Shown here one piece after another: positions 3,178 to 24,619 of a DNA stretch of 64,000 nucleotides. The stretch comes from a virus (lineage: Duplodnaviria; Caudoviricetes): positions 1 through 64,000 of the IMG/VR virus record IMGVR_UViG_2061766007_000924; one strand, 5' to 3'. Both the position numbers and the translations under genes were made by a program. The first letter of the stretch is position 1. Every line of letters starts with the position of its first letter. The notes beneath the pieces were generated by a model that worked only from the letters and a program-made list of their open reading frames with translations, did no database searches and was not told the origin of the DNA.

Positions 3178-4581
3178 ATGCCAAAGATTATAAAGCCGCA
3201 AGAGGGGCCACAGACGGCATTTCTTTAGCTTTCAAGTTCGGCAGACATTGTGATATATGGAGGGGCCGCAGGTGGAGGGAAAAGTTGGGGGCTACTTCTT
3301 GAGCCAATAAGGTACAAAAACCACAAAGGCTACAATGCGACAATATTCAGGACGCAGTTTACGGATCTGATAAGAGCTGGTAGCTTGTGGGAAGAATCGT
3401 ACACGCTATACGGAAGCATTAAGAATGCAGTAGCTAAACTTGGCGATAGGCAGTGGATTTTTAGGGACAAAAAAGGAAACGTAACGTCAAAGGTCACGTT
3501 CGCATACATCAATGAGCAGAATATGGGCACTTACAAAGGTAGCCAGTTATGCATGATTGGGTATGACGAGCTGACAGATTTCTCGCAAAAAGTATTCTTT
3601 TTCATGCTTTCTCGTAACCGTTCTACTTGCGGCGTGGTGCCATATATCAGGGCGACATGTAACCCAGATCCAGACTCATGGGTGGCAAAGTTCATTGAGT
3701 GGTGGATAGATCAAGATACAGGCTACGCAATACCGGAGAGGTCTGGAGTCATAAGGTGGTTTGTCCGCAGAGACGAGAAAATATATTGGGCAGACACGAA
3801 AGAAGAACTATGGGAAAAGTTTGAGCTTAACACACCAGAGGAAAAAGAAGAGCCACGGTCTGTAACATTCATAGCATCAAGCGTATATGACAACAAAGAG
3901 CTTTTGAAGGTCAATCCTCAGTATTTGGGCAACCTAAAGGCTATGGCTGAGGTTGAAAGAGAGAGGTTCTTAAAGGGCAACTGGAAGATCAAACCTGCGG
4001 CTGGACTCATTTTTAAGCGTTCACAGGTCAATATCATTGAGGCAGAGCCAACGGACTTGCTGTTTGTATGCAGGGCATGGGATATTGCAGCGACAGAGAA
4101 AAAGGAAAAGAGTGACGATCCAGACTATACGGCTGGAGTGCTGATGGGCAAGAGAAAAAACGGCAGGTATGTTGTTTTGGATGTAATCAATCAGCAAGTG
4201 GGAGCCGCCGAGGTAGAAAATCTCATAAGGAACACAGCAATAGCAGACAGAAAGAAATATGGTCATTTAGTGAGGATCAGGTTGCCGCAAGACCCCGGTG
4301 GAGCTGGAAAGATAGTAGCAACAGACTGGGTGAGAAAGCTTGCTGGATTCTCAGTCAAGGCAGAGAGAGTAACAGGAAGCAAGGTAACGAGGGCGAATCC
4401 TTTTGCGGCACAGTGGCAGGTAGGTAATGTGGATGTGCTTGAGGCTGACTGGAATGACGCATATTTTAAGCAATTAGAGTTCTTCCCAGAGGGAAAACAT
4501 GATGACATGGTAGACGCAAGCTCAGACTCGTTCAACGAGTTATCAGCGCCTACATTCAACGTATCAAGTTTAGTTAGATGA
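3178..4581 (+). CDS. terL: Terminase large subunit, with an in-frame TAG at codon 17 (3226-3228)
   Basis: Walker A YGGAAGGGKS, Walker B IGYDEL, ATCNP coupling motif, RNase H-like RAWDIA and HDDMVDA. ATG 3178 with RBS gives MPKIIKPQEGPQTAFL* in frame with the 3250 ORF. Confidence 0.92.
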
Positions 4582-4630
4582 TGCAGTGCGGGTAGCACTG
4601 CTATTTTTGTTTGTTGAAAGGAGTATCGGG

Positions 4631-9128: not shown

Positions 9129-9347
9129 CTTTTCTCAAAAGTTGCTAAAAAGCTCTGCGAATTGCTACTTGTTTACACTTTGTTCATGAAAATGTCCATC
9201 GTAAATGATAAAATGTGCACGATGGAAAGAGTATAAGAAGCGGAAGCGCCGGGCAACTGGCGCTTTTATTATAATTGGGGCTTGCGTTTGCGGATGCATG
9301 CTTGGGAGCGCTTGGAAACAGGCGCTCTTTCTTTTTACCAACAACGG

Positions 9348-11549
9348 ATGAAGGGGAGTGACAGCTTGTACAAGAAACAGAATATAGTGGACTTCTCAAA
9401 ATTCGTTGACGGAAACGCGAAGTTCATTGAAAAGACAACAGGCAAATCTGTCAGGCCGAGGAACAAGGCGTACAATCAGGATGGATTTGTAAATCTGCTT
9501 ACGAATTATGGCACAAGCCGTGACTCGTCAGAGCATTATTTCTTCGAGTCGGAAGATCCTATTATGGACGATGAGCTGGAGAGGTTCTATGAGGGGAACG
9601 GGCTGTTCTCCAGAATCATTGACTTGCCAGCAGAAGAGGCCATAAAGCACGGGTTTGAGATAAAGGATCTTGCGGACGGCGAGACGAAGGACTTCTTCGA
9701 TGACTCTATGGATGAGCTTGAGTGGGACGAGAAGTTCATGACTGCGCTCAAGTGGGCGAGGCTTTTTGGCGGTTCAATCGGCGTAATGCTGATAAATGAC
9801 GGAAGGGGTCTGGAAGATCCGCTTGACTGGGATCATATCAAGTCAATTGATGACATTCAGGTTTACGACAGGTCGCTTGTTGTGCCGAATTATGCGTCAA
9901 TGTACAAGTATGAGGGCGAAGATCCTTCGAGGTCGAGGGGAAGCAGACTTGGCGTTCCTGAGAATTTCATGGTAACAAGCAAGTACGGTACTTTCACTGT
10001 TCACGAAAGCAGGTGCTTGATTTTCCAGAACGGCGTTCTTCCTGAAAGATGCACCAACGAGATTTACCAGATGTGGGGCATTCCTGAGTATATCAGGATT
10101 CACAGGGCAATCAAAGACGTAGAGGTTGCTCACGGCATGGCTCCGAAGATGCTGGACAGGTCGGTACAGGCTATCTACAAGATGCAGAATTTGGCGCTTG
10201 AGATGTCAACGGATCAGGGCGAAGAGAACATCTTGAAGAGGTTGCAGCTGATTGACCTTGCGAGAGGGCTTATGAACAGCATTGTCCTTGACGCTGAGGG
10301 TGAAGACTATGATTTCAAGTCTTTCACATTCACGGGCGTTTCGGATGTTATCAACACAACATGCAATTATCTGTCTGCGATTACGAACATACCGCAGACA
10401 GTTCTTTTTGGTCGTGCTCCGGCTGGTATGAATGCCACTGGTGACGGCGACATGGAGAACTACTACAACTATGTAGAGAGAATCCAGAAGCGCATGGTTA
10501 AGAAGAATCTGCGCTATTTGCTTGAAATTCTTGCGAAAGCAGGAGTCAGGAACAAAGAGATCAAGGGACATCCGCCGATCAAGATAGAGTTTAGTTCTCT
10601 TTGGTCTATGACAGAGCAGGAGAAAGTTGCGCTGGATCTGCAAAAGGCGCAGGTTGCTCAGACAAATGCCAATACAGCGAATGTCTATGTCCAGATGCAA
10701 GCGCTTGACCCGCAGGAAGTCAGGGATCAGCTTGCAAAGGATGGAGACTTTGAGATTGACACAATGCTGGATGACTACACCGATGAGGAGCTTGAGGAAA
10801 ACAATCCTGCCAACAAGCAGCAGCAAGACCAGATGGCTGCGATGATGGGCATGATGGGTGGAGGCGCACCCGGAGGCGGAGCGCCAGAAGGTGGAGCACA
10901 GAGCGGAAATCCAATGATGCCTCCAGAGGCGCAAGAAGGGGCTCAGGAAGCGCCGAAGCCTCAGATGGGTAATTTGCCGTCTGATGGCGGAAAAGACGTT
11001 CCTGATGAAAATCCGAAAGCTACAAGTGCAGAAGAAAAGAAAACTGAGAAGACAGTCGAAGAAGACGCTGACGATGTGAAGCCTCACATGCTTGGCGGAG
11101 TTGGAGTCATTGTTGTAAAGGACGGAAAGATTCTGACTGCTACGAGGATTAAAGGCAAAGGCACCGGACTCATTGGTGGGCCGGGAGGCCACATTGAGGA
11201 AGGTGAGACTCCGAAAGAAGCTGCTGTAAGAGAGACTTTGGAAGAGTTCAAAATCATTCCGAAGGATCTTGTGAGAATCGGCAGCAAGCTTGAGACGGGC
11301 ACAGGAATCAAAGTCGGCGGCGATAATGCAGAGCACTTGAGAAGCACCGTGTTCCTTTGCACCGAGTTCGAGGGAGAGCCAGAGTGTGACAATTATGAAA
11401 TGGCTATTCCCGTTTGGAGAGACTTGGATGAGCTCAGGCTTATGGATGACAGAATGTTCAAACCTTTCAAAGATGGGTTGAAGATGCTGAAAAATAAGGT
11501 CGCCAGAGGAATCATGGAAAACAAAAACTCTTGGGATGGAAAGTCCTGA
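9348..11549 (+). CDS. Portal protein (DUF1073-type) fused to a C-terminal Nudix hydrolase (alternative start TTG 9366)
   Basis: DGFVN, WARLFGGS, VHESR, IPQTVLFGRAPAGMNATGDGDMENYY portal motifs; low-complexity linker; Nudix box GGHIEEGETPKEAAVRETLEE. Confidence 0.9.
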   Translation: MKGSDSLYKKQNIVDFSKFVDGNAKFIEKTTGKSVRPRNKAYNQDGFVNLLTNYGTSRDSSEHYFFESEDPIMDDELERFYEGNGLFSRIIDLPAEEAIKHGFEIKDLADGETKDFFDDSMDELEWDEKFMTALKWARLFGGSIGVMLINDGRGLEDPLDWDHIKSIDDIQVYDRSLVVPNYASMYKYEGEDPSRSRGSRLGVPENFMVTSKYGTFTVHESRCLIFQNGVLPERCTNEIYQMWGIPEYIRIHRAIKDVEVAHGMAPKMLDRSVQAIYKMQNLALEMSTDQGEENILKRLQLIDLARGLMNSIVLDAEGEDYDFKSFTFTGVSDVINTTCNYLSAITNIPQTVLFGRAPAGMNATGDGDMENYYNYVERIQKRMVKKNLRYLLEILAKAGVRNKEIKGHPPIKIEFSSLWSMTEQEKVALDLQKAQVAQTNANTANVYVQMQALDPQEVRDQLAKDGDFEIDTMLDDYTDEELEENNPANKQQQDQMAAMMGMMGGGAPGGGAPEGGAQSGNPMMPPEAQEGAQEAPKPQMGNLPSDGGKDVPDENPKATSAEEKKTEKTVEEDADDVKPHMLGGVGVIVVKDGKILTATRIKGKGTGLIGGPGGHIEEGETPKEAAVRETLEEFKIIPKDLVRIGSKLETGTGIKVGGDNAEHLRSTVFLCTEFEGEPECDNYEMAIPVWRDLDELRLMDDRMFKPFKDGLKMLKNKVARGIMENKNSWDGKS

Positions 11550-11566
11550 GACTATGAGGTGACAGT

Positions 11567-12805
11567 ATGGACAAAGCTGTTGAAAAATTCAGAAAGCGCA
11601 GACAGGAAAGACTTGATGCGAAAAACGGAGCTAAGGAAGTCGAGTACGATAGCGTGGCTGAGTTCAGAAAACGTAGAGAAGAACGTCTCAATTCCAGAAT
11701 GGATGCTGGAGTAGGCTGGGTTTTTGGCGTTCTGAAAGAAAACGGCGTTGACACTCAGGGTATGAGTGTAAAAGAGGCTTTTGAGGCGCTTGGCAAGATT
11801 AACGGTGGTGGGAAAAATGGAAAGAGTGAAGCTGCTGCCAAAGAAAAGAACAATTCGCCAAAGAATGAACCGACAAACAGCAAAAAGTCTTCAAGTGGCG
11901 GAGAGGTAAAAGGCAGTTCCTACACCAACCGATATAAGACAAGTGGTGGAGTCAGCTATCCGAAGCTCAAGAAGGGTGCTGTGTATGATGAAGATACGTT
12001 GAAGGAAGTCAATAGGCTTGCGGATAGCACAGAAAGCAACAGGCCACCTAAAACAAGAGCACAAGAAAAAGCCCTCAAGTCGATGACAAGCAAAGATATA
12101 ACGTATCAGAAAGATCCTGATGGGACTGTTGTGGGATCTATTCCCGGACTGTCCCAGATGTATGATACAAAAGTTAAAGGGAAAAGTCAGGCTGTTCAGG
12201 ATGCGTATGATAAGAGAATCGAGCAGGGCAGACAGATCACTAAGGACATGGTTAGCATTAGTGACAAGCTTGGCTCACGCATGATGGGGCTTGAAAACTG
12301 CTTCAAGGGCGGAGAGAGCACTTCAAGAAAGATAGATAAAGTAAAAGACAAGTGGAAGCAGAAGGGCGAGGATCTGACTGATGAGCAAGCGCTTGCCAGA
12401 ATGGACGATGTTGTCCGATTCTCATACAAATGTGACCACGGTAAAATGGTAGAACAGATCAAGGGACTTGAGTCAGAACTTGAGAAAAACGGATATGAGA
12501 TAACAGAGCGTGATAACAAGTTCCTGCCTAAAGAGGATGGAACGCCGAGAGATTATAAGGCCGTTCATTTGCAGGTCAAAGCTCCGAGCGGAGAACTGTT
12601 TGAGGTGCAGGTGCAGTCGGAAGAAACGATCAAGGTAAAGAACAAGAATCACTCACTCTATGAGAGGTCAAGGGTTCTGGATGATAAAGATCCGAAACAG
12701 GCCGCTGAGAAAACAAAACTGGTAAACGATATGGTAAATAACTGGTCTGGGATGGCAGAGCCTGACGGAATTTTAGATCTGCCAACATTCAAGAAAAAGA
12801 AGTAG
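11567..12805 (+). CDS. Effector 3: double leader + RelA/SpoT-type small alarmone synthetase (toxSAS/Apk2-like)
   Basis: FRKRRQERLDA and FRKRREERL..RMDA; synthetase motifs K..ES..RKI, DDVVRFS, DYKAVHLQ, FEVQVQS. Confidence 0.85.
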   Translation: MDKAVEKFRKRRQERLDAKNGAKEVEYDSVAEFRKRREERLNSRMDAGVGWVFGVLKENGVDTQGMSVKEAFEALGKINGGGKNGKSEAAAKEKNNSPKNEPTNSKKSSSGGEVKGSSYTNRYKTSGGVSYPKLKKGAVYDEDTLKEVNRLADSTESNRPPKTRAQEKALKSMTSKDITYQKDPDGTVVGSIPGLSQMYDTKVKGKSQAVQDAYDKRIEQGRQITKDMVSISDKLGSRMMGLENCFKGGESTSRKIDKVKDKWKQKGEDLTDEQALARMDDVVRFSYKCDHGKMVEQIKGLESELEKNGYEITERDNKFLPKEDGTPRDYKAVHLQVKAPSGELFEVQVQSEETIKVKNKNHSLYERSRVLDDKDPKQAAEKTKLVNDMVNNWSGMAEPDGILDLPTFKKKK

Positions 12806-12821
12806 GATGTTGCAGAAACGG

Positions 12822-12850
12822 TTGACAAAAATATATGACAGCGGTAAAAT
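12822..12850 (+). promoter_or_regulatory. SigmaA-type promoter for the 12869 gene
   Basis: TTGACA-17nt-TAAAAT. Confidence 0.8.
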
Positions 12851-12868
12851 ATACACGGGGGTGAGTAG

Positions 12869-13156
12869 ATGAAGAAATACGCATATTTCAGGGACGGGCT
12901 TCTGCCTGATTATATTGTTCGTGAGACGATAGACGGCAAAGAAGCAATTGCCGAGGCTTGGGATTACAAGAACAAGCGGTGGGTTCCAGATGCTGCTGCA
13001 TGGGAGACTATCGAAGATGGTCAAGGAAACTGGGCTCTTGATGCTGACTATGTTGACGAGTACATTCAGAAGATGATTGAGCGTTTTCCTGATGTGGAAG
13101 AGCGTGAACTGAAAGTCAAGGAGGATGGCGCAAAGCGCAAATATCCTTGGTGGTAG
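12869..13156 (+). CDS. Candidate immunity protein for the alarmone synthetase (IapK-like position)
   Basis: 95 aa, Trp-rich, between the SAS and the HD hydrolase, with its own promoter. Confidence 0.6.
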   Translation: MKKYAYFRDGLLPDYIVRETIDGKEAIAEAWDYKNKRWVPDAAAWETIEDGQGNWALDADYVDEYIQKMIERFPDVEERELKVKEDGAKRKYPWW

Positions 13157-13191
13157 AAAGCAATTCAGACTGCTAAATGTTGCAGAAACGG

Positions 13192-13220
13192 TTGACACAA
13201 ATTCACTTCTGCGGTAAAAT
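13192..13220 (+). promoter_or_regulatory. SigmaA-type promoter for the HD hydrolase; duplicate of the 12822 promoter
   Basis: TTGACA-17nt-TAAAAT; shares ATGTTGCAGAAACGGTTGACA and GCGGTAAAATA with 12808-12851. Confidence 0.8.
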
Positions 13221-13244
13221 AACTGCGGAAGGGAAGTGGTTAGC

Positions 13245-14487: not shown

Positions 14488-14656
14488 GGAAGTCATGGTA
14501 AAATACATTGGGAGAGGCGATCCTTTGTATTGCCTCAAGGGGAAGGTATACAAGAAAGTTGGCGAGTCACACGGGCTGTGGAGAATCATAGATGAGTCTG
14601 GAGAAGATTATCTGTATGCTCCAGAGCTGTTTGAGATTGTGAAAGAAGACAAGTAA
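14477..14656 (+). CDS. Candidate immunity protein for effector 4
   Basis: 59 aa, overlaps the effector 4 stop; VKYIG...GKVY...RIIDESGEDYLY motif. Confidence 0.65.
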   Translation: MENKEVMVKYIGRGDPLYCLKGKVYKKVGESHGLWRIIDESGEDYLYAPELFEIVKEDK

Positions 14657-14691
14657 AACGGCGTTCATGAAACGCCTTGGGGGTGTTTCTT

Positions 14692-16152
14692 ATGGACAAT
14701 GCCGTTATTGAATATAAGAAAAGAAGACAGAAGAGGCTTGATGCCAAGGCGGTAGAACAGTACAGGATCAGGCGAGAAGCAAGGCTTCACGGCAGAATGG
14801 ATGCCGATGGAGACGAAGAAAACAATGGAGGCGGCAAGAGAGGCCACGGTAATACAAGGCTTCCGTTTGGACTGTGCCAAAGGTTTGGGATTCAGATAGG
14901 TAAAGATTGGGGGCCGTCCGAAGCATGGGATGCGCTTGCAGATAAAGGAATTACACCGAAGGGCGCATTCGACAGGCTAAAGCGAGGGTACGATCCCGGA
15001 GACCCCGGCAGTGATGAGGAATTTGTGGATATCAGCTCGTTGGCGGCGATTACAAAGAAAGCGTTCACAGCAGAATCCGCGACTGAGTATCTGAAAAATA
15101 TAAAAGAAAGAGAACAGAAAAGAAAAGAAGAAGAGAAAAGAATACAGGATGAACTATGGGCAACAAAAAGTGTGAGGGATAACGCATTATTAGATTATAA
15201 GAATACGCAAAAATCAATAGATAATTTCAGAAAAATGCTGGAAGATGACTCAATTGATGATATCACAAGGCTTAGATGTAGCAGGGCAATTGAAAAATAC
15301 AAAACATGGCAAAAGAATTTATCGGAACAAGTTGATAAATATACAAAGACAGAAAAAGAGCTACAGGAAAAGCTTGAGGGGCTGAAATCTGGATTCAAGG
15401 ATTACGAAAAAGAGAGGATCAAGGAAGCGATAGAGGCTAAGTATCCGTCTTGGGACAACTGCAACACAAGTCAGGAAGTGTTAGAAAGAGCAGATGCACT
15501 TGCGCTGGCGGATTCAAAATATGGGCGTGTAGCCGCCGCTGTTAAATCAGCAGAGAAACATAATGTAAAATACTTCAAGCCAGAGAAGACGGCAACGAAG
15601 TTGAGCGATGATGAGATCATTCAGAGCCTTGGCGGCGGAGACATGACAAAAGGTTCTTGCGCTTCGCTGTGTATGGCCTACATAGCGAAAAAGATGGGCT
15701 ATGATGTCAATGATTTCCGAGGAGGATCTTCACAGAGCACGTTTTCCCATGAGTGCAGGAGTCTCATGAAGGGAGTAGGCGCTGAGGAAGAGACGAATCG
15801 AGACGGCTACAAATCAGCTCATGCAACGCTTGACAAGATGGTCGAGGGCAAAGAATACTGGTTTGAGTGCGGACGGCATGCGGCAATTGTAAGGAAAACC
15901 GAAAAAGGGTATGAATATCTGGAACTGCAAAGCAGTTCTAACAACGGCTGGTTTCCGCTTACAGATAGGACACTCAAGAATAGATTCGCTCTTCACAGGA
16001 CGAGGAGCCATGCTGGAATAAGATTTGACATATCTTCGTCTATTGTAGACATTGAAAAGGCTATGAACGACCCGGCTTTTCAGGCGGTGTTTGGGTTTAT
16101 CAATACAGCAGAGGGAGAACGGAAGATGGGGAGGAGTGGCTATGCGAAGTGA
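14692..16152 (+). CDS. Effector 5: double leader + adaptor A + coiled coil + papain-like cysteine peptidase domain
   Basis: YKKRRQKRLDA, YRIRREARL..RMDA, HGNTRLPFGLC; GGGDMTKGSCASL (Cys) ... GRHAAIVRK (His) ... YLELQS. Confidence 0.7.
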   Translation: MDNAVIEYKKRRQKRLDAKAVEQYRIRREARLHGRMDADGDEENNGGGKRGHGNTRLPFGLCQRFGIQIGKDWGPSEAWDALADKGITPKGAFDRLKRGYDPGDPGSDEEFVDISSLAAITKKAFTAESATEYLKNIKEREQKRKEEEKRIQDELWATKSVRDNALLDYKNTQKSIDNFRKMLEDDSIDDITRLRCSRAIEKYKTWQKNLSEQVDKYTKTEKELQEKLEGLKSGFKDYEKERIKEAIEAKYPSWDNCNTSQEVLERADALALADSKYGRVAAAVKSAEKHNVKYFKPEKTATKLSDDEIIQSLGGGDMTKGSCASLCMAYIAKKMGYDVNDFRGGSSQSTFSHECRSLMKGVGAEEETNRDGYKSAHATLDKMVEGKEYWFECGRHAAIVRKTEKGYEYLELQSSSNNGWFPLTDRTLKNRFALHRTRSHAGIRFDISSSIVDIEKAMNDPAFQAVFGFINTAEGERKMGRSGYAK

Positions 16153-16378
16153 GTTTTATAAGGAGAAATCAGGGGACAAAGTCTGGTGGTTAGATAACGA
16201 CAGCATAGGTGAGTTCGTTTTTAGCTTTGACAGGAAGAAGACATACAACTTGTTTCAGGACTATCCGCACAAACTGAGTGTGGAAGAGTGGAAGACATTC
16301 AACAGAGAGAATCCTTATTGGGAAAACTTTTTCAAGGACAGAAACGAAAAATACAAGAAAAAGCACGATATTGATTGA
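16142..16378 (+). CDS. Candidate immunity protein for effector 5
   Basis: 78 aa, overlaps the stop; FYK..DKVWW...FSFD.K..YNLF.DYP...ENPYW..FF.DR. Confidence 0.65.
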   Translation: MRSEFYKEKSGDKVWWLDNDSIGEFVFSFDRKKTYNLFQDYPHKLSVEEWKTFNRENPYWENFFKDRNEKYKKKHDID

Positions 16379-16384
16379 AACGGA

Positions 16385-17677
16385 GTGATTCTGTTGGACG
16401 GTGCGAGAAGACAAAAGCGAATGGATGATAAGGCCGTTCAACTCTATAAAATGCGCAGGGATGAGCGACTTTTGCGCAGGTATGATGCAGAAGAGGAAGA
16501 GGGCAACAATGGAGGGGGGAACGGCGGAGGTCATGGAAACACAAAAATCCCGTTCGGATTATGCCAAAGAGAGGGCATAAAAGTAGACCCGAACTGGACA
16601 CCGAGGGACGCTTGGGATGCGTTGGCTGGTAAGGGCTACAGTGCAGGAGATGTCTACAAAGAGCTCAAAGAGACCGGAAAAGTTGGCAAGAAGAGCTCCA
16701 CCAAGACGAAGAAACCACCAACGAGAATAGAGGAAAGCCATTTTCAGCCGGAATTTACATCAAAGACATACAGAAAAAACACAATGGTTTTCGCTGACTA
16801 TATAAGCGACCATTGTGACGATGGAAACATAACCGAGTTTCTTGGCGCAGGTGCAGCTGGAGGGAAAAAGCCGTCAAAGTTCAAAGTCACGAGACTGTCA
16901 GGAGCAGACGGGGCTTGCGTAACTTATACACGGGATCTGGACGATATTGAGATTCGTATTCCGAATTTTGCTTCTATAAAAGACGAGAGGACAAGGGCTC
17001 AAGCAATAAGGACATTTGCTCATGAGTATACGCATTACCTTGACATGCTTGCCAGAGGTGAGCACGGGGATCATTTTACCGGGGCAAATTCAAAGATAGC
17101 TGATGAGCTGGAAAAGGCAAAAAGCAAGGGGATCGGAGAAGAAGTCTCAAATGTCTTCAAAGAGTACAATAAAGGCTACGAGAAGCTCAAGAATGACTAC
17201 GATGCCAAGGTAAAGACGTTCGACCGAGATTTTGCCAAGCAAAAGTTTGGTGACAATTTCCCGGAGTGGCTGAAAGAGGACGGAACGTGGAATTATTCCC
17301 TTGGGTGGAGAGCTTGGCAAGCGCATCAACCGGAAATGAAGAAATACAGCTCGGAGAGGAAAAAGGCGGCTAAAAAAATGGCTACTGATAGTTCTTTCGA
17401 GAGACGGGCGTATATGGACGGCGCAACAAGCTTGCAGGGGATATACGATTCGATTCATGGCGGAGAGCTGAGAGACCAAAAGGTTGTAAAGTACGGACAT
17501 TCACTTGGTTATTTCAAGAGAGACAAGGAAAACAGAGCGGTAGAGGTCATAGCTGACTATGTGGCTTTAAGGGCAACTAACTCAAAGTATGCAGATATGT
17601 TCGCGAAGGATCATCCGGGGCTTGCCGCTGCACTGGATGAGGCCATAGTAGAGATGACTAAGGTTTTGAGGGGGTAA
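16385..17677 (+). CDS. Effector 6: leader + adaptor A + HExxH zinc metallopeptidase domain
   Basis: YKMRRDERL..RYDA, HGNTKIPFGLC; FAHEYTHYLD; YGHSLGYF...EVIAD. Confidence 0.75.
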   Translation: MILLDGARRQKRMDDKAVQLYKMRRDERLLRRYDAEEEEGNNGGGNGGGHGNTKIPFGLCQREGIKVDPNWTPRDAWDALAGKGYSAGDVYKELKETGKVGKKSSTKTKKPPTRIEESHFQPEFTSKTYRKNTMVFADYISDHCDDGNITEFLGAGAAGGKKPSKFKVTRLSGADGACVTYTRDLDDIEIRIPNFASIKDERTRAQAIRTFAHEYTHYLDMLARGEHGDHFTGANSKIADELEKAKSKGIGEEVSNVFKEYNKGYEKLKNDYDAKVKTFDRDFAKQKFGDNFPEWLKEDGTWNYSLGWRAWQAHQPEMKKYSSERKKAAKKMATDSSFERRAYMDGATSLQGIYDSIHGGELRDQKVVKYGHSLGYFKRDKENRAVEVIADYVALRATNSKYADMFAKDHPGLAAALDEAIVEMTKVLRG

Positions 17678-17681
17678 AAGT

Positions 17682-17930
17682 ATGGATGAGAGCATGAGAA
17701 AGTTTTTCGAGAATGACAGGCTGTATATGGAAGTGATGCGGCTGTATGGAGAATGCGATGATGAGGGCGTGATGAGGTATTTTGACGCAGACAGTGAAAA
17801 GAACCTTAGAAAAAAGATCAAAGTGCTCAAGAAACTGAATGATGGGGTGTCTCCAGAGGAAATTGGAGCTGACTATTACGAGATTCTTGAGAATCTGCCT
17901 GACGGAGACAAAAACAGGGGCAGTTGGTAA
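17682..17930 (+). CDS. Candidate immunity protein for effector 6
   Basis: 82-aa acidic ORF 4 nt after the effector stop, followed by a terminator. Confidence 0.6.
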   Translation: MDESMRKFFENDRLYMEVMRLYGECDDEGVMRYFDADSEKNLRKKIKVLKKLNDGVSPEEIGADYYEILENLPDGDKNRGSW

Positions 17931-17938
17931 CGAATAAC

Positions 17939-17970
17939 AAGAGCGTTCTACTTAGGTAGGGCGCTCTTTT
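17939..17970 (+). terminator. Intrinsic terminator
   Basis: AAGAGCGTTCTAC-TTAG-GTAGGGCGCTCTTTT. Confidence 0.7.
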
Positions 17971-17989
17971 CATTTGCGGAGGTTGTTTA

Positions 17990-18945: not shown

Positions 18946-21900
18946 GTGATTGCCATTAAGGACTACAAAGCCATATACGAATACAGAGAAAGACGGCAAT
19001 ATAGGATTGATGGCAAGCGTCTTGATGATGAGTGGAAGACGATCAAAGGCACTCATGTCATGATAGATGATGAAGGATCTATCACAAAAGGGCCTGAGAA
19101 GCTGAGGAATCTGTCAAGTAAAAAGCCAAAAAACTTGACAGTCGGCAAAGAGATGTCTCCAATCAATTCGGACTATGTCTATGATGATGGAGACACCGAG
19201 GACGATTTCACTCATAAGAATCTCAAAAAGCTCAAGAAAATCTATGATGAGCAGGGCATGGATGCTGTTCATGATGAATGGTACAAGTTCAGAATGGCAG
19301 ACAGCACCAAGGATATACACCAGATAAGCAAAGACGAGGCGGACGAGATCATGTATGATAACGTCCGTCAAAGCATTTATGATGGCTGGTTTCGAGCAGC
19401 AGACAGTTCTTACAAGCCGCAGTTGACGGATGCAATTGTAAAGAATCCAGAGATGCGGAACGCAGCTCTGAATTTGGCTTATGAGAACTACAGGAACAAC
19501 ACTGAAAATCCGTTGCCTTTTGAAGAGTTTCTGGTAACACCTATTAAGATGTACAGAGGCGAAAAGGGTCAAAAGCATGTCGAAGATGACATTTTCGATG
19601 CCTACACCTTTGATCCTAAGATGGCAAGGCATTTTGCAGGTGACAATGGCACTGTAACTGAGACTGAGGTAAGGCCGATTGACACTTACGGAAGCATGAG
19701 GGCGGTTGGCGAGGCTGAGATATGGGTGCCGAGACAGCTTTCTCCTGTTGGCTACAAGGGCGACTCCAGAGAGGACGGTATCACTTGGGAGAGGTTCGAT
19801 CCTCAGAAGTGGGCTCTTGAAGACTACAAGGAAGAGGATGACGGCTGCGAGGATCTGCTTGAATCTATCATTCAGGAAGCTGAGATGGTCAAGCTGTTTG
19901 ACGGCAGCAGCAAGGAATCTGACAGACTGACGATGCAGAGATGCATTGAGAGCATTCAGATCATGGCCTTGCAGCTGACAGCGAAGCTTAGGCCAAAGCA
20001 TGAAGACAGCGCTTTCTTCGCTGGAGAGTTGAACAGCAATCTTGGTGAGAGAAACATTCTTTATCCAGAAGTACAGGCATTCAGAGAGCGCAGACAAAAG
20101 AGACTGGATGCAAAGAGTGACGAAGATGAAGGGCGCTGGGTAACGACAGAGGAAAAGCATAAAGTTCATATCAACGAAGAGGGAGTACCGGACAAGGGAA
20201 ATCCTCATGTAATAGCAGCAATGAAGGGTGAGGGCAAGAATCCAAAAACAAGAGCCGAGGTTATAACCGCAAGAGTTAAGAAAAAGTCGGCGGCTATAAA
20301 GGAACTTGTCAAGAGAGTCAACGAGAAAAATGAAGCTCATGAAAAAGCAATAGACGAAAAAAGCGAAGCAGACAAGGAACTGAGAAATGCCAAAAGAGGG
20401 CTCAGACGAGTTAAATCCAAAAAAGACTTTATCAAAGGGCTTGGATATAAAGAGGGCGATAAGAATAAAATGCTTAGAGATTCCGATGATTTGCAAATTC
20501 AGATGGACAAGCTAAGAGACAGTCGGCCCGTTTATAGACTTAGCGATGAAGAAAAGGCCAAATACACAGAGCTTGAGAGCAGAAAGAATCAAGTAGATTA
20601 TGCGGCAGGTGTATATGATGATTGCTTTGGGCCAGACGCTTTTACAAGAGAAAAGGTGGCGCAAGCACGGGAACGGTCAGCGGCTGCTGACAAAAAGATG
20701 AGGCAAGCTGAGAAGGAGTATCGTCAGGCGAGAAAAGAGCTCAAGCAAAAGGCGAAGAACGGAGATATAAACAAAGCGCGATTGTACACAGATGAAGAGA
20801 GAGCGTCTGAGATCAAAAAAGTTGTTGAATCGCCACAATGGGGAGACTTAAGCCAAGAGCAGAGAGACAAAGCTATGGCGGCTATCAACGGAGCGTCTGA
20901 TGCAGAAATACAGCTGTTAAGCAGGACGTTTGATAAAGTAAGATTCAACGACAGCTACGGAGCAACGACAATAGGCGGCTCAACGGCTTGGTACACTCCA
21001 AGAACAGGGGCAATCACGTTGTCACAAGAGGACATGGGAAAGCCAAAAACAGTGTGGCACGAATTTGGGCATTTCTTGGACGATGCAGAGGTTAGTGGCT
21101 GTGACGCTGGAGAAACGAGGCTGATGGGGTCAACATACAAAGACACCTTGTCACATCGAGTCTCAAGTGATAAAATATTGCACAGTGAAAAAGCGGCTGC
21201 GGATATGCAAAAGCTGTTGGATGAAGAAGCTCCCGGAAAGTATCGAATTGAGTCTTCCAACGGCAACATGCTTCGCGTCTTCGATGTTGAAAAGGGTGAA
21301 TATGTGGATGCTTCGGAAGATATGTCATATGACTATTATCTATCTGAGGTAACATGCAGACATTTTCATGAATTCACCTTTAGGGACAAGGAATATGATG
21401 ATTATTTAAGGTCTATTGGTTATCCTTTGGATAGTGAAATGCCGAAATACAGTGATTTCATGGAGACATATACGACTCCAAAGCGCAAATTGGAAAGAGA
21501 AAGAGAAAAGTATCCGGGTGCGAAAAAAGAGTACATGAACAAAATGAGCAAATTCCATTTGCAAAGGAATCAAGCGATAGACAAGAATTTGGAAGAGTAC
21601 AGAAGACAGACTAAAGCATATGACGATAGGTGCACAGAGAGGGGAAATCAAGTTGGAGCAATATCGGACATTATGTGCGGTATGATGCGAGGAAAAGGGG
21701 CATGGATATACGGATGCCACAAGGAAGATTATTATAGCATTATGGATGCACCTGCTAAAGAAGCTGTCGCACATTATCATCAAATGAGAGTCATGGGAAG
21801 CAAGTATGGGATGGAGCTTCTGAATAGTTTGCTGCCGAGCGTGGCGCATGGGCTGGAAGAGGCTTACAATGAATGGCTGTGGAGGAATGTAGATGTATAA
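18946..21900 (+). CDS. Effector 7: tandem [leader + adaptor B + ART-like domain]-[leader + adaptor B + coiled coil + HExxH metallopeptidase]
   Basis: YRERRQYRIDG/RLDD, WKTIKGTHVMIDDEG; MYRG..AYT..A..F..GEAEIWV; internal FRERRQKRLDA + GRWVTTEEKHKVHINEEG..GNP; VWHEFGHFLD. Confidence 0.7.
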   Translation: MIAIKDYKAIYEYRERRQYRIDGKRLDDEWKTIKGTHVMIDDEGSITKGPEKLRNLSSKKPKNLTVGKEMSPINSDYVYDDGDTEDDFTHKNLKKLKKIYDEQGMDAVHDEWYKFRMADSTKDIHQISKDEADEIMYDNVRQSIYDGWFRAADSSYKPQLTDAIVKNPEMRNAALNLAYENYRNNTENPLPFEEFLVTPIKMYRGEKGQKHVEDDIFDAYTFDPKMARHFAGDNGTVTETEVRPIDTYGSMRAVGEAEIWVPRQLSPVGYKGDSREDGITWERFDPQKWALEDYKEEDDGCEDLLESIIQEAEMVKLFDGSSKESDRLTMQRCIESIQIMALQLTAKLRPKHEDSAFFAGELNSNLGERNILYPEVQAFRERRQKRLDAKSDEDEGRWVTTEEKHKVHINEEGVPDKGNPHVIAAMKGEGKNPKTRAEVITARVKKKSAAIKELVKRVNEKNEAHEKAIDEKSEADKELRNAKRGLRRVKSKKDFIKGLGYKEGDKNKMLRDSDDLQIQMDKLRDSRPVYRLSDEEKAKYTELESRKNQVDYAAGVYDDCFGPDAFTREKVAQARERSAAADKKMRQAEKEYRQARKELKQKAKNGDINKARLYTDEERASEIKKVVESPQWGDLSQEQRDKAMAAINGASDAEIQLLSRTFDKVRFNDSYGATTIGGSTAWYTPRTGAITLSQEDMGKPKTVWHEFGHFLDDAEVSGCDAGETRLMGSTYKDTLSHRVSSDKILHSEKAAADMQKLLDEEAPGKYRIESSNGNMLRVFDVEKGEYVDASEDMSYDYYLSEVTCRHFHEFTFRDKEYDDYLRSIGYPLDSEMPKYSDFMETYTTPKRKLEREREKYPGAKKEYMNKMSKFHLQRNQAIDKNLEEYRRQTKAYDDRCTERGNQVGAISDIMCGMMRGKGAWIYGCHKEDYYSIMDAPAKEAVAHYHQMRVMGSKYGMELLNSLLPSVAHGLEEAYNEWLWRNVDV

Positions 21901-22207
21901 GGATACGTTCAAGCTCAATCAAGAGCTTGTTGAGCTCTTGAATGATGGGTTTTTTGATGATATAGAGTTCAAAATGTGCGTAGGCAAAGACGGAAAGCTC
22001 GATTTTGATGGATTGCTGAGTTTCTGGATTGGCTTGGGCGGAAGAAAGTATACAATGAAGTATCTTTTGAAGTATGGCGGGTTGGGGTCGCCTTGGGTTC
22101 AATATGATAACAGAGACGAGGATGAAAAAAAGTACAAGAAACTGATTGAGGAAAACAAGACTTGGGAAGAGGCGTATGGAAAGCCGCCCAAGGATGTGCT
22201 TTTGTAG
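21893..22207 (+). CDS. Candidate immunity protein for effector 7
   Basis: 104 aa, overlaps the effector stop, followed by a terminator. Confidence 0.55.
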   Translation: MYKDTFKLNQELVELLNDGFFDDIEFKMCVGKDGKLDFDGLLSFWIGLGGRKYTMKYLLKYGGLGSPWVQYDNRDEDEKKYKKLIEENKTWEEAYGKPPKDVLL

Positions 22208-22225
22208 AAGCCAATATTGTAAAGC

Positions 22226-22258
22226 AGCATCGTGCAGATAATAGCACGGTGCTTTTTT
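22226..22258 (+). terminator. Intrinsic terminator
   Basis: AGCATCGTGC-loop-GCACGGTGCT followed by TTTTT. Confidence 0.7.
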
Positions 22259-22358
22259 AATAGATTGATGTTGCTAAATAGCGAAAATATTGCGCTATAC
22301 AGGAAAATAATCGTTGTATTACCCATGTCACAGCGTTAAAATTAGCCGAGGTGATTAT

Positions 22359-23012
22359 ATGGGAAGATACATTGATTTAACGGGAAAGCAGTATGGACGC
22401 TTAACAGTCTTGTACAGGACACAAGACCACATTTCAAAATCTGGAAGACCTGCTGTTGTGTTTCATTGCAGATGTACATGTGGAAAAGAATGTGACGTAA
22501 TGAAGTTGGCGTTGGTTAAGGGATATACGAAGTCATGTGGATGCTTGAGATCGGAAGAAACAAAGAAGAGGCGTACAAAAAGAGACGATATATCCAGAAA
22601 ACTGAGAATTATTTATAGGCACATGTGCGAAAGGTGCTATGACGAAGCAGATAAAAGGTATGAAAGATATGGCGGAAGAGGCATTGCAATTTGCGATGAA
22701 TGGATTGAGGAAGATGGAATGGAGAGGTTTATAGAGTGGGCGAGAAATAACGGGTACTCTATTGGACTGACAATAGATAGAATAGATAACAATGGAAACT
22801 ACAGTCCTACAAATTGCAGATGGACAACGCCAAAAGAACAATCAAACAACAGGTCAACGAACACAATGCTTACTGTCGATGGGACAACAAAGACAATAGC
22901 ACAATGGCTGGACTTCTTGGGAGTAAAATCTACAAGGCTTTACTATTACGATGAAGACAGAAAAGTCGAATTCGTAAGAGAAAAAATAAAGCAAAAAAAT
23001 TTAATAGATTAA
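22359..23012 (+). CDS. Free-standing HNH-like homing endonuclease
   Basis: DLTGKQYGRLTV, CRCTCG, TKSCGC, YGGRGIAICDEW, TIDRIDNNGNYSPTNCRW; own promoter (TTGTAT-17-TAAAAT, 22314-22342). Confidence 0.85.
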   Translation: MGRYIDLTGKQYGRLTVLYRTQDHISKSGRPAVVFHCRCTCGKECDVMKLALVKGYTKSCGCLRSEETKKRRTKRDDISRKLRIIYRHMCERCYDEADKRYERYGGRGIAICDEWIEEDGMERFIEWARNNGYSIGLTIDRIDNNGNYSPTNCRWTTPKEQSNNRSTNTMLTVDGTTKTIAQWLDFLGVKSTRLYYYDEDRKVEFVREKIKQKNLID

Positions 23013-23034
23013 GGGCACGAAAGTGCCCTTTTTT
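23011..23034 (+). terminator. Intrinsic terminator
   Basis: AAGGGCAC-GAAA-GTGCCCTT-TTTT. Confidence 0.8.
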
Positions 23035-23059
23035 CTATGCCAAAAAGAGGGGATGAAAA

Positions 23060-24619
23060 ATGGAGATTAGAGATGCGCCTAAACTCGTGAAAGTAACGAG
23101 GCTTGATAGTATGCCGATGCCAAGGGCATATTTCACACCGGAAGGATATCTGAAAGATAAGCCCGTGCTCACGTCTACGGGAATATTCGAGTATGCAAAT
23201 CCTGATGGAAGTATAAGGCGCGAACTAAGGCTTCCCGAGGATGTTTTCGATCCTAAAAGTCTCAAGAGCTATCTGGGGAAACCAATAGTGGTGACTCATG
23301 ATGCCGGGCTGATTGACAAAGACAACGTGGCAGAGAATCAGATTGGCACTATCTTGAGCGAAGGGGAAAGAAAAGGAAATGATGTTGTCGCTTCTATAAT
23401 CATTCACGACACTGAAGCTATGAAGGATGCAGGGTACAAAGAATTAAGCCTTGGATACAACTTGGATCTGGACGAGACTCCGGGCGAATGGCAGGGGCAA
23501 CATTATGATGCGCGGCAGCGTAACATAGTTATCAACCATTTGGCTCTTGTGCGTGAGGCAAGGGCTGGAGAACAGGCACGGCTGAATATGGACGGTCGTG
23601 ACAAAAACACACTTATAGGGGGTAAAAAAATGAGCAAGAAACTCACCAAGACTCGTCATGGTGACTCTGTTCTTTCTCAGGAAGAGTTTGAGAAAGCCAT
23701 TGACGAGTACAAGATGCGTAAGGCCCAGCGTGAGAAGACTGACGCTGATGATGTTGTTGAGGAAGAGGCCGTTGAGGAAGTCAAGGATCGCAACCCCAAG
23801 GACATTGAGGCGCAGCTTGCCGAAGTCAAGGCCAGACGTGACCGCCGTGACGAGGCTGGAGATCCTGAGGACATGGAAGACGCAATGAGCGTCATTGCCC
23901 ATCAGGACGAGGACATCGACATTCTGTATGACATCATTGACACACTGCTTGCAAAGCAGGATTTCGATGCGGCTGACGAGGAAGAGGAAGTCACTGCCGA
24001 GGAGGAAGTCATTGATGACGAGGACGAGAACCTTGATGAAATTGATGATCTGAACAAGCTCAAGGACAACAAGGCCAAGGCTGACGCTGACGATGATGAA
24101 GCGTTTGTTGAGGAAGAGGAAGTCAAGGAAGATGCCGATGACATCGAGGATGTCGAGGACGAAGAGATGGTAGATGAGGAAGAGGAAGTCAAGGAAGACG
24201 CTGACGATACCGAGGAAGAGGTTGTCGAGGATAAGGAAGAGTGGGAAGAGGACGGAGATGACTGCGGCACCAAGAAGGAGCGCATGGACTCCGCTATCAG
24301 CCGTTCTGTTCGCAATCACCTGATCATGGGCAACATCGGTCGGCAGGTCGGTCTGAACAATCTTGAGATGAAGGATATTCGCGATGCGAAGATTGCCATT
24401 ATCAAGAAGGTTCGTCCCGACATGCGTCTGGATGGCAAGTCCAATGCGTACATCAACGGCGCTTTTGAGAGTGCCCGTAAGGCTATCAAGGCGAAGAAGG
24501 TCAAGGACACTTCCTACCAGAAGCGTCAGATGTTCAACAAGGATTCTCGCGATGTAGTAGAAAAAAACACTGCTGAGAGTGCTCGTGACCGCATGATCAA
24601 GAGACTCTACAAGAAGTAA
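23060..24619 (+). CDS. Prohead protease/scaffold (DUF2213-type) with a long acidic scaffold region
   Basis: TPEGYL, RRELRLPEDVF, KELSLGY, NHLALVREARAG; located before the decoration and capsid genes. Confidence 0.85.
   Translation: MEIRDAPKLVKVTRLDSMPMPRAYFTPEGYLKDKPVLTSTGIFEYANPDGSIRRELRLPEDVFDPKSLKSYLGKPIVVTHDAGLIDKDNVAENQIGTILSEGERKGNDVVASIIIHDTEAMKDAGYKELSLGYNLDLDETPGEWQGQHYDARQRNIVINHLALVREARAGEQARLNMDGRDKNTLIGGKKMSKKLTKTRHGDSVLSQEEFEKAIDEYKMRKAQREKTDADDVVEEEAVEEVKDRNPKDIEAQLAEVKARRDRRDEAGDPEDMEDAMSVIAHQDEDIDILYDIIDTLLAKQDFDAADEEEEVTAEEEVIDDEDENLDEIDDLNKLKDNKAKADADDDEAFVEEEEVKEDADDIEDVEDEEMVDEEEEVKEDADDTEEEVVEDKEEWEEDGDDCGTKKERMDSAISRSVRNHLIMGNIGRQVGLNNLEMKDIRDAKIAIIKKVRPDMRLDGKSNAYINGAFESARKAIKAKKVKDTSYQKRQMFNKDSRDVVEKNTAESARDRMIKRLYKK

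Follow-up and report, generated by a model that had tools for sequence, protein, structure and literature searches.

Two effector cassettes joined in frame in a probable polyvalent cargo protein of a Caudoviricetes phage

The stretch analysed here (the window) is the first 64 kb of a 101,395 bp contig from a virus of the Caudoviricetes, IMG/VR record IMGVR_UViG_2061766007_000924, and all of its called genes lie on the + strand. Our subject is a 984-residue open reading frame (ORF) situated among virion genes, with those for TerL, the portal, MuF and a DUF2213 protein nearby. An earlier reading of the sequence, the original prediction, had described this ORF as two complete cargo units fused in one frame. 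The frame is indeed single, and all of the motifs quoted in that prediction lie where it placed them: MYRG at nucleotide 19549, AYTF at 19600, EAEIW at 19711, KGDS at 19756, REDG at 19768, HEDS at 19999, QAFRERRQKRLDA at 20074 and HEFGH at 21058. The polypeptide contains two distinct effector-type domains, one resembling ADP-ribosyltransferases (ARTs; residues 70–268) in unit 1, and a zincin metallopeptidase (residues 621–984) in unit 2. The parts of the ORF and the genes around it are listed in Table 1.

Table 1. Positions in the window of the 984-residue ORF, its parts and the neighbouring genes.
Feature	Position	Strand	Remarks
Whole polyvalent cargo ORF (probable), 984 residues, about 113 kDa	18946..21900	+	Single open frame; GTG start 5 nt past the MuF stop
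Leader 1 (residues 7–22, basic helix) and adaptor B copy 1 (23–55, small beta-meander)	18964..19110	+	
Unit 1 catalytic core (residues 70–268), helical lobe and ART-like beta core	19153..19749	+	YRG 203–205, AYT 219–221, EAE 256–258
Acidic low-confidence linker (residues 269–299) with KGDS and REDG	19750..19842	+	pLDDT 30–40
Pre-leader helical module (residues 300–375), ending HEDSAFFAGEL..GE..YPE	19843..20070	+	Motifs conserved across 15 homologues
Internal leader 2 (residues 376–390) and adaptor B copy 2 (391–425)	20071..20220	+	
Charged K/E-rich region, probably helical (residues 426–620)	20221..20805	+	Weak coiled-coil-type Pfam matches
Unit 2 zincin metallopeptidase (residues 621–984)	20806..21897	+	HEFGH 705–709, D712, Y929/Y930, E939
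Partner ORF of unit 2, 104 residues	21893..22207	+	Overlaps the unit 2 stop by 8 nt
Segment (unit 2, partner ORF and HNH gene), 2,976 bp, without counterpart in the ~90% identical relative L001	20067..23042	+	blastn collinearity
TerL	3250-4581	+	Head block
Portal-NUDIX fusion	9282-11549	+	Head block
MuF/SPP1-gp7-like minor head protein, separate gene of 316 residues	17990..18940	+	PF04233, E 6.6e-15; directly upstream of the cargo ORF
HNH endonuclease	22314..23012	+	PHROG 374, E 1.5e-63; part of the segment without counterpart in L001
DUF2213 (Pa193_gp24 family)	23060..24619	+	PF09979, E 2e-33; PHROG 530 'head maturation protease'

The two units begin in the same way. Residues 7–49 and 373–418 align with 43% identity over 46 residues (pairwise E 6e-6), and the repeat pairs a basic helix, with R-R-Q-x-R-[LI]-D at its end (the leader), with a small beta module behind it, W-x-T..H-V-x-I..G, the 'adaptor B' of the original prediction. 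In the AF2 model of the first copy, the helix spans residues 7–21 and the strands residues 29–33, 36–40 and 46–48. A leader of the form R-R-Q-x-R-[LIM]-D also starts the ORFs at 11567, 14677 and 16385, and at the DNA level the internal leader is 83% identical to that of gene 11567. When all ORFs of the 101-kb genome were searched with a leader hidden Markov model (HMM), the top score belonged to the internal copy (29.7 bits, E 1e-8). The HMM missed divergent leaders at 4586 and 8274 and a candidate scaffold-helix look-alike, which for so short a model is a weak negative. The internal restart proposed in the original prediction is thus a genuine duplication of leader and adaptor B. A separate translation start for unit 2 was rejected, there being no in-frame ATG, GTG or TTG around 20040–20080.

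The internal leader and adaptor B form the best conserved stretch of the protein, with 76–83% identity where the peptidase has 29–34% and the charged helical region, in divergent homologues, 20–24%. The acidic linker is just 25–50% conserved among such homologues. In a set of 195 proteins (194 retrieved plus the query), 80 carry a leader with adaptor B; at least two copies are present in 35 of these 80, and 68 copies are internal. Because the junction is conserved and internal copies are many, the succession of leader-adaptor, cargo, leader-adaptor and cargo is a rule in the family and not a relic.

Ahead of the internal leader lies a module of about 75 residues ending D-SAFFAGEL..GE..YP, with the further conserved motifs ..IIQEAE.. 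and RC.eSIQ. The same module forms the extreme N-terminus of many cargo proteins that have no ART unit (P0005, P0007, P0011, P0020-26, P0031, P0042 and P0061), in which it is directly followed by a leader and adaptor A or B. Judged by this distribution, the 'helical spacer' at residues ~300–375 is a pre-leader junction module and not an ART-specific inhibitor; the built-in, cis-acting inhibitor suggested in the original prediction is not supported, because the module precedes leaders where there is no ART unit. In two fusions of unit 1 to Ntox50 (P0028 and P0036), a ..HPRD..GQFS.. peptide stands past the pre-leader module and ahead of Ntox50, and may be another junction motif.

If the units are cassettes, they should also be found apart, and among 61 homologues unit 1 (here residues 1–375) and unit 2 (residues 376–984) assort independently. 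The homologues come from metagenome assemblies, at least one of them labelled gut; a tblastn search of 50,697 cultured-phage records (INPHARED) gave no match. Both units occur together in at least 10 homologues, down to about 33% identity, and the fused architecture is kept in P0001, P0003, P0008, P0010, P0016, P0017, P0033 and P0034. Unit 1 is joined to other cargo (Ntox50, a glutamine deamidase (Gln_amidase) or ADPrib_exo_Tox) in about 14 homologues, and other cargo precedes unit 2 in 11, so that the domains have recombined into many architectures. Each unit also exists on its own: P0039 (670 residues) consists of unit 2 only, has a start of its own and carries the leader at residue 44, and P0046 (375 residues, 96% identical) is one of several solo forms of unit 1. 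In P0005 and P0011 (loci L008 and L007), the unit upstream of unit 2 has an H-N-H-P..S..DD pattern that recalls JAB/MPN-type metalloenzymes, for which it is a candidate.

P0046 is located in L001, a relative that aligns collinearly with the window, the nucleotide identity being about 90%. Its unit 1 ends ..YPS-stop, a terminator-like hairpin follows, and 107 bp stand in place of window positions 20067–23042, a segment that the alignment identifies as an insertion relative to L001. The cassette boundary is therefore no more than 1–2 codons from the start of the internal leader. A relative with a stop codon and terminator exactly at the junction might suggest that the fusion is accidental, an assembly error or a recent chimera formed by deletion of a stop codon and without functional meaning. 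We consider this very improbable, since the two-unit architecture recurs, at identities as low as about 33%, in at least eight homologues that stem from independent samples, and no part of the protein is better conserved than the junction. Together with the split, solo and recombined forms, the position of the boundary at the internal leader bears out the original description of two complete cargo units.

Other differences between the window and L001 also break at leader/adaptor regions, which suggests cassette exchange at shared modules. Gene 11567–12805 and L001 1571–2875 have their first ~250 nt (leader and adaptor) in common at about 90% identity and then differ in cargo, which in L001 is a Zeta_toxin and in the window another domain, as in a cassette replacement. 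Between window positions 14496–17976 and L001 4640–6433, a single chimeric L001 gene stands for two window genes (14677–16152 and 16385–17677); L001 4866–5077 matches both of them, consistent with unequal recombination between their N-terminal leader/adaptor regions.

The predicted fold of residues 591–984 is a confident one (pLDDT 89.7, pTM 0.85), and its top structural matches are all of the anthrax lethal factor (LF)/M34 type, the HExxH helix lying within a zincin fold that resembles LF domain IV. H705, E706, H709, D712, Y929, Y930 and E939 do not vary across 22 sequences; E939 is the putative zinc-ligand Glu, and Y929 and Y930 are candidates for the catalytic Tyr. LF residues 686–692 read HEFGHAV, with the same HEFGH pentapeptide as unit 2 (PMC3153234). 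Unit 2 had no match to the Pfam ATLF model (PF07737) at E up to 10, and profile and single-sequence searches of PDB sequences returned nothing relevant, so that its kinship with LF is at the level of fold only.

The phage carries a second such protein. The product of 16385–17677, a leader/adaptor-A protein of 430 residues, is paralogous to the peptidase in unit 2, with which hhalign aligned it over 239 columns (E 8.4e-6), motifs included; it reads FAHEYTHYLD where unit 2 reads WHEFGHFLDD, and it is retained in L001. There are thus two LF-like zincin cargo proteins in the phage.

Only one small ORF, 21893–22207, follows the cargo gene, as the original prediction had noted, and it belongs to unit 2. 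Homologues of the 104-residue ORF overlap the 3' end of the unit 2 gene in L004, L007, L008 and L009, whatever is fused upstream; the ORF follows unit 2 in five of five loci and is missing from L001, where unit 2 is missing too. This co-inheritance makes it the partner of the peptidase cassette, and its product is a candidate inhibitor, immunity protein or chaperone. It has no detectable relation to the 82-residue ORF (17682–17930) that follows the paralogous peptidase. Solo ART-like genes, in all four loci inspected, have no conserved small ORF downstream, in keeping with the earlier claim that the ART-like unit has no immunity gene of its own; this lack would fit a host-modifying role rather than a self-toxic one.

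In unit 1, R204, E256 and E258 are invariant in our alignment (A1), and among 53 diverse members of the family the Y-R-G and E-x-E motifs are conserved to 90% or more. A profile search with the core (residues 70–268) at E ≤0.001 gathered 447 clusters at 50% identity, from solo proteins of 200–290 residues to parts of giants of up to 4,143 residues; a Pfam scan found no model for this family. The order of the motifs is that of R-S-E-type ARTs, in which strands 1 and 2 carry Arg and Ser/Thr, respectively, and (Q/E)-x-E precedes strand 5: R204 lies on a predicted strand at 200–205, Y220-T221 on one at 217–221, and E256-x-E258 just before one at 259–262. Structural matches of the unit 1 model to ARTs were weak, and the searches were swamped by the helical C-terminal module. 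A language model led to DRAT, and one homologue has a DRAT match in Pfam. Aligned by hhalign to canonical PF03496 domains, the core placed YRG, the S-T motif and ExE in register, with a non-significant E of 0.56. Unit 1 is thus a probable divergent R-S-E-type ART-like domain; the motifs named in the original prediction are conserved, and the ART fold that it proposed is plausible, with weak matches. Elsewhere the domain is fused to portal and NUDIX domains (P0073 and P0074), to MuF (two of the 53 members) and to tape-measure proteins (P0141 and P0178). P0073 and P0074 extend the portal-NUDIX fusion with both the ART-like domain of unit 1 and a canonical ART.

Downstream of the partner ORF, the HNH gene precedes the DUF2213 gene, and its homologues in L008 and L009 (64% and 48% identity) occupy the same place. 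In collinear relatives, the DUF2213 gene is followed by a PF09950 capsid gene. The DUF2213 protein, annotated as scaffold or head maturation protease, is a candidate partner for the loading or cutting of cargo. Upstream, a 45-nt direct repeat, 84% identical (12807–12851 and 13177–13221), precedes the ORFs at 12869 and 13236; it holds TTGACA and TAAAAT-like boxes and may be a duplicated promoter.

We believe that the ORF probably encodes a phage-type polyvalent cargo protein, in which two independently mobile effector cassettes are juxtaposed in frame. Cassette 1 would comprise the leader, adaptor B and the divergent R-S-E-type ART-like domain; cassette 2 would comprise the pre-leader helical module, leader, adaptor B, charged helical region and a zinc metallopeptidase like those of anthrax LF and PPEP, and would travel with its own small partner gene. 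The leader/adaptor modules may dock the protein inside the procapsid, because the gene lies between those for portal/MuF and scaffold/capsid, and because the ART-like domain is fused elsewhere to portal, MuF and tape-measure proteins. The whole protein would subsequently be ejected along with the DNA. The role of the ART-like domain would be to modify proteins of the host, much like T4 Alt, and that of the peptidase to cleave host targets or to process cargo, the peptidase presumably being restrained inside the producing cell by the 104-residue protein. Of the original prediction as a whole, the two-unit fusion and the reading of the small ORF survive in this scheme, and the inhibitory spacer does not.

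Several points weigh against it. No Pfam or PHROG family, the MPTase-PolyVal, ART-PolyVal and LPD models included, matched the whole protein at E ≤0.1, and when the latter three were compared with its separate parts there was no match at E up to 10; scans of three pieces of the protein likewise brought up no family of significance. Packaging and ejection are read from genomic context. In several homologues, a canonical ART domain lies beside the unit 1 domain, which leaves room for the latter being an ART-associated domain rather than an ART.

Phage-type polyvalent proteins were described by Iyer, Burroughs, Anand, de Souza and Aravind (2017; PMC5512222). Like the 984-residue protein, they bring together several unrelated effector domains in one polypeptide, are encoded among portal, terminase and MuF genes, and are extensively shuffled; packaging, injection and possible processing by metallopeptidase (MPTase) domains were proposed for them as well. 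The same work describes a widespread phage MPTase clade with HExxH-x-x-D and a variable insert before the Glu helix, and here too an LF-like zincin MPTase, with Asp three residues past HExxH and a variable insert, is combined with an ART-like domain. Our protein differs in matching none of the Pfam models from that work, in having a conserved leader and adaptor before each unit, with a pre-leader module in addition before unit 2, and in the cognate small gene that accompanies the peptidase cassette. We did not find the leader/adaptor junction described in that paper, in which the word 'linker' occurs 0 times.

The MuF polymorphic toxins (Jamet et al., 2017; PMC5576092) share the location in the head module, the idea of delivery with the DNA, and variable toxin-type C-terminal domains that include metallopeptidases and ARTs. 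Their putative immunity genes, small ORFs (<150 residues) directly downstream, have a counterpart in the 104-residue ORF. In contrast to those toxins, MuF here is a separate gene and not part of the same polypeptide, the carrier is the leader/adaptor module, and two cargo units stand in series.

T4 has a capsid-targeting sequence system, formed by the internal proteins IPI-III, Alt and the gp21 prohead protease, which we regard, like the MuF toxins, as a functional analogue. There, as here, a short N-terminal peptide is common to unrelated head-packaged proteins, one of which, Alt, is an ART that modifies the host after injection. Unlike the T4 sequence, the peptide in our protein recurs internally and is followed by a folded adaptor, and the neighbouring DUF2213 protein is unrelated to gp21. 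With peptidase family M34 (anthrax LF domain IV, PPEP-2/3), unit 2 shares HEFGH, a later conserved Tyr and a putative Glu-bearing helix; it differs in its phage context, in the want of a sequence-level match to ATLF or PDB sequences, and in the distance from HExxH to the putative Glu ligand, a stretch of approximately 230 residues in which there are beta-hairpins and a long helical hairpin.

The original prediction had also read extra x-x-D sites between the units as signs of proteolytic maturation. Separation of the two units by cleavage is possible but, on balance, somewhat doubtful. The sites are present, and D277-G, D354-S and D388-A are conserved in most or all of 15 homologues (33–92% identity); KGDS is not. 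A helix cap or a turn would explain a conserved Asp with a small residue behind it just as well, so that the sites do not count as evidence of cutting. Their conservation would nevertheless suit a true polyprotein, in which the leader would act as a capsid-targeting sequence and a prohead protease would cut after x-x-D (REDG, HEDS, RLDA), freeing two mature effectors inside the head much as T4 gp21 acts on Alt and the internal proteins. The strong constraint on the internal leader and the free interconversion of fused and split forms, expected if the units work apart, are in agreement with such a scheme, as is the PHROG 530 label of the DUF2213 gene. However, the member of the DUF2213/PF09979 family that has been studied, Pa193 gp24, was described as a putative scaffold and not a protease, its authors being unable to tell whether it is cleaved (PMC11456595). 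Other leaders in the phage come in tandem pairs, a pattern more suggestive of a binding element than of one place to cut, and packaging without cutting occurs in some polyvalent proteins, N4 vRNAP among them (PMC5512222). We therefore regard a polyprotein as unlikely.

A cargo-releasing role was proposed by Iyer et al. (PMC5512222) for the MPTase domains of polyvalent proteins, and a similar role might fall to the LF-like peptidase in unit 2 or to its paralogue, which would cut at the basic leaders, in the head or after injection. The LF-like fold and identical HEFGH pentapeptide agree with this, and the LF consensus (three to four basic residues, x-x-x, cut before an aliphatic residue) can be laid over RRQK-RLD/A; moreover, a paralogous HExxHxxD peptidase stands in the same array and is kept by L001 without unit 2. 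Yet that motif fit comes from one consensus, and specificity cannot be transferred from a likeness at the level of fold without a sequence match. Unit 2 also occurs alone (P0039), and its constant small partner gene suits a toxic effector aimed at host proteins better. Self-processing is accordingly, in our view, improbable, and we give as little weight to the corresponding idea that the phage's own LF-like zincins, namely unit 2 and the 16385–17677 paralogue, recognise the leader as a 'cut here' signal. Were it true, any cassette inserted in frame would automatically be packaged via its adaptor, and a protease that is one of the cargo units would afterwards release it.

The reading we prefer remains that of two mobile cassettes in one polyvalent cargo protein. 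What it adds to the known systems is the pre-leader/leader/adaptor junction, a cassette boundary placed to the codon by a close relative, and a partner gene specific to the peptidase. Both catalytic domains represent sizeable families without a model in Pfam or PHROGs. With the same cassette fused, solo or swapped in close relatives, the locus is a natural experiment on multi-enzyme injected proteins. If the leader and adaptor prove to be a loading or release signal, they would provide a portable tag for packaging proteins into capsids, and could explain how uncultured gut phages load many effectors.

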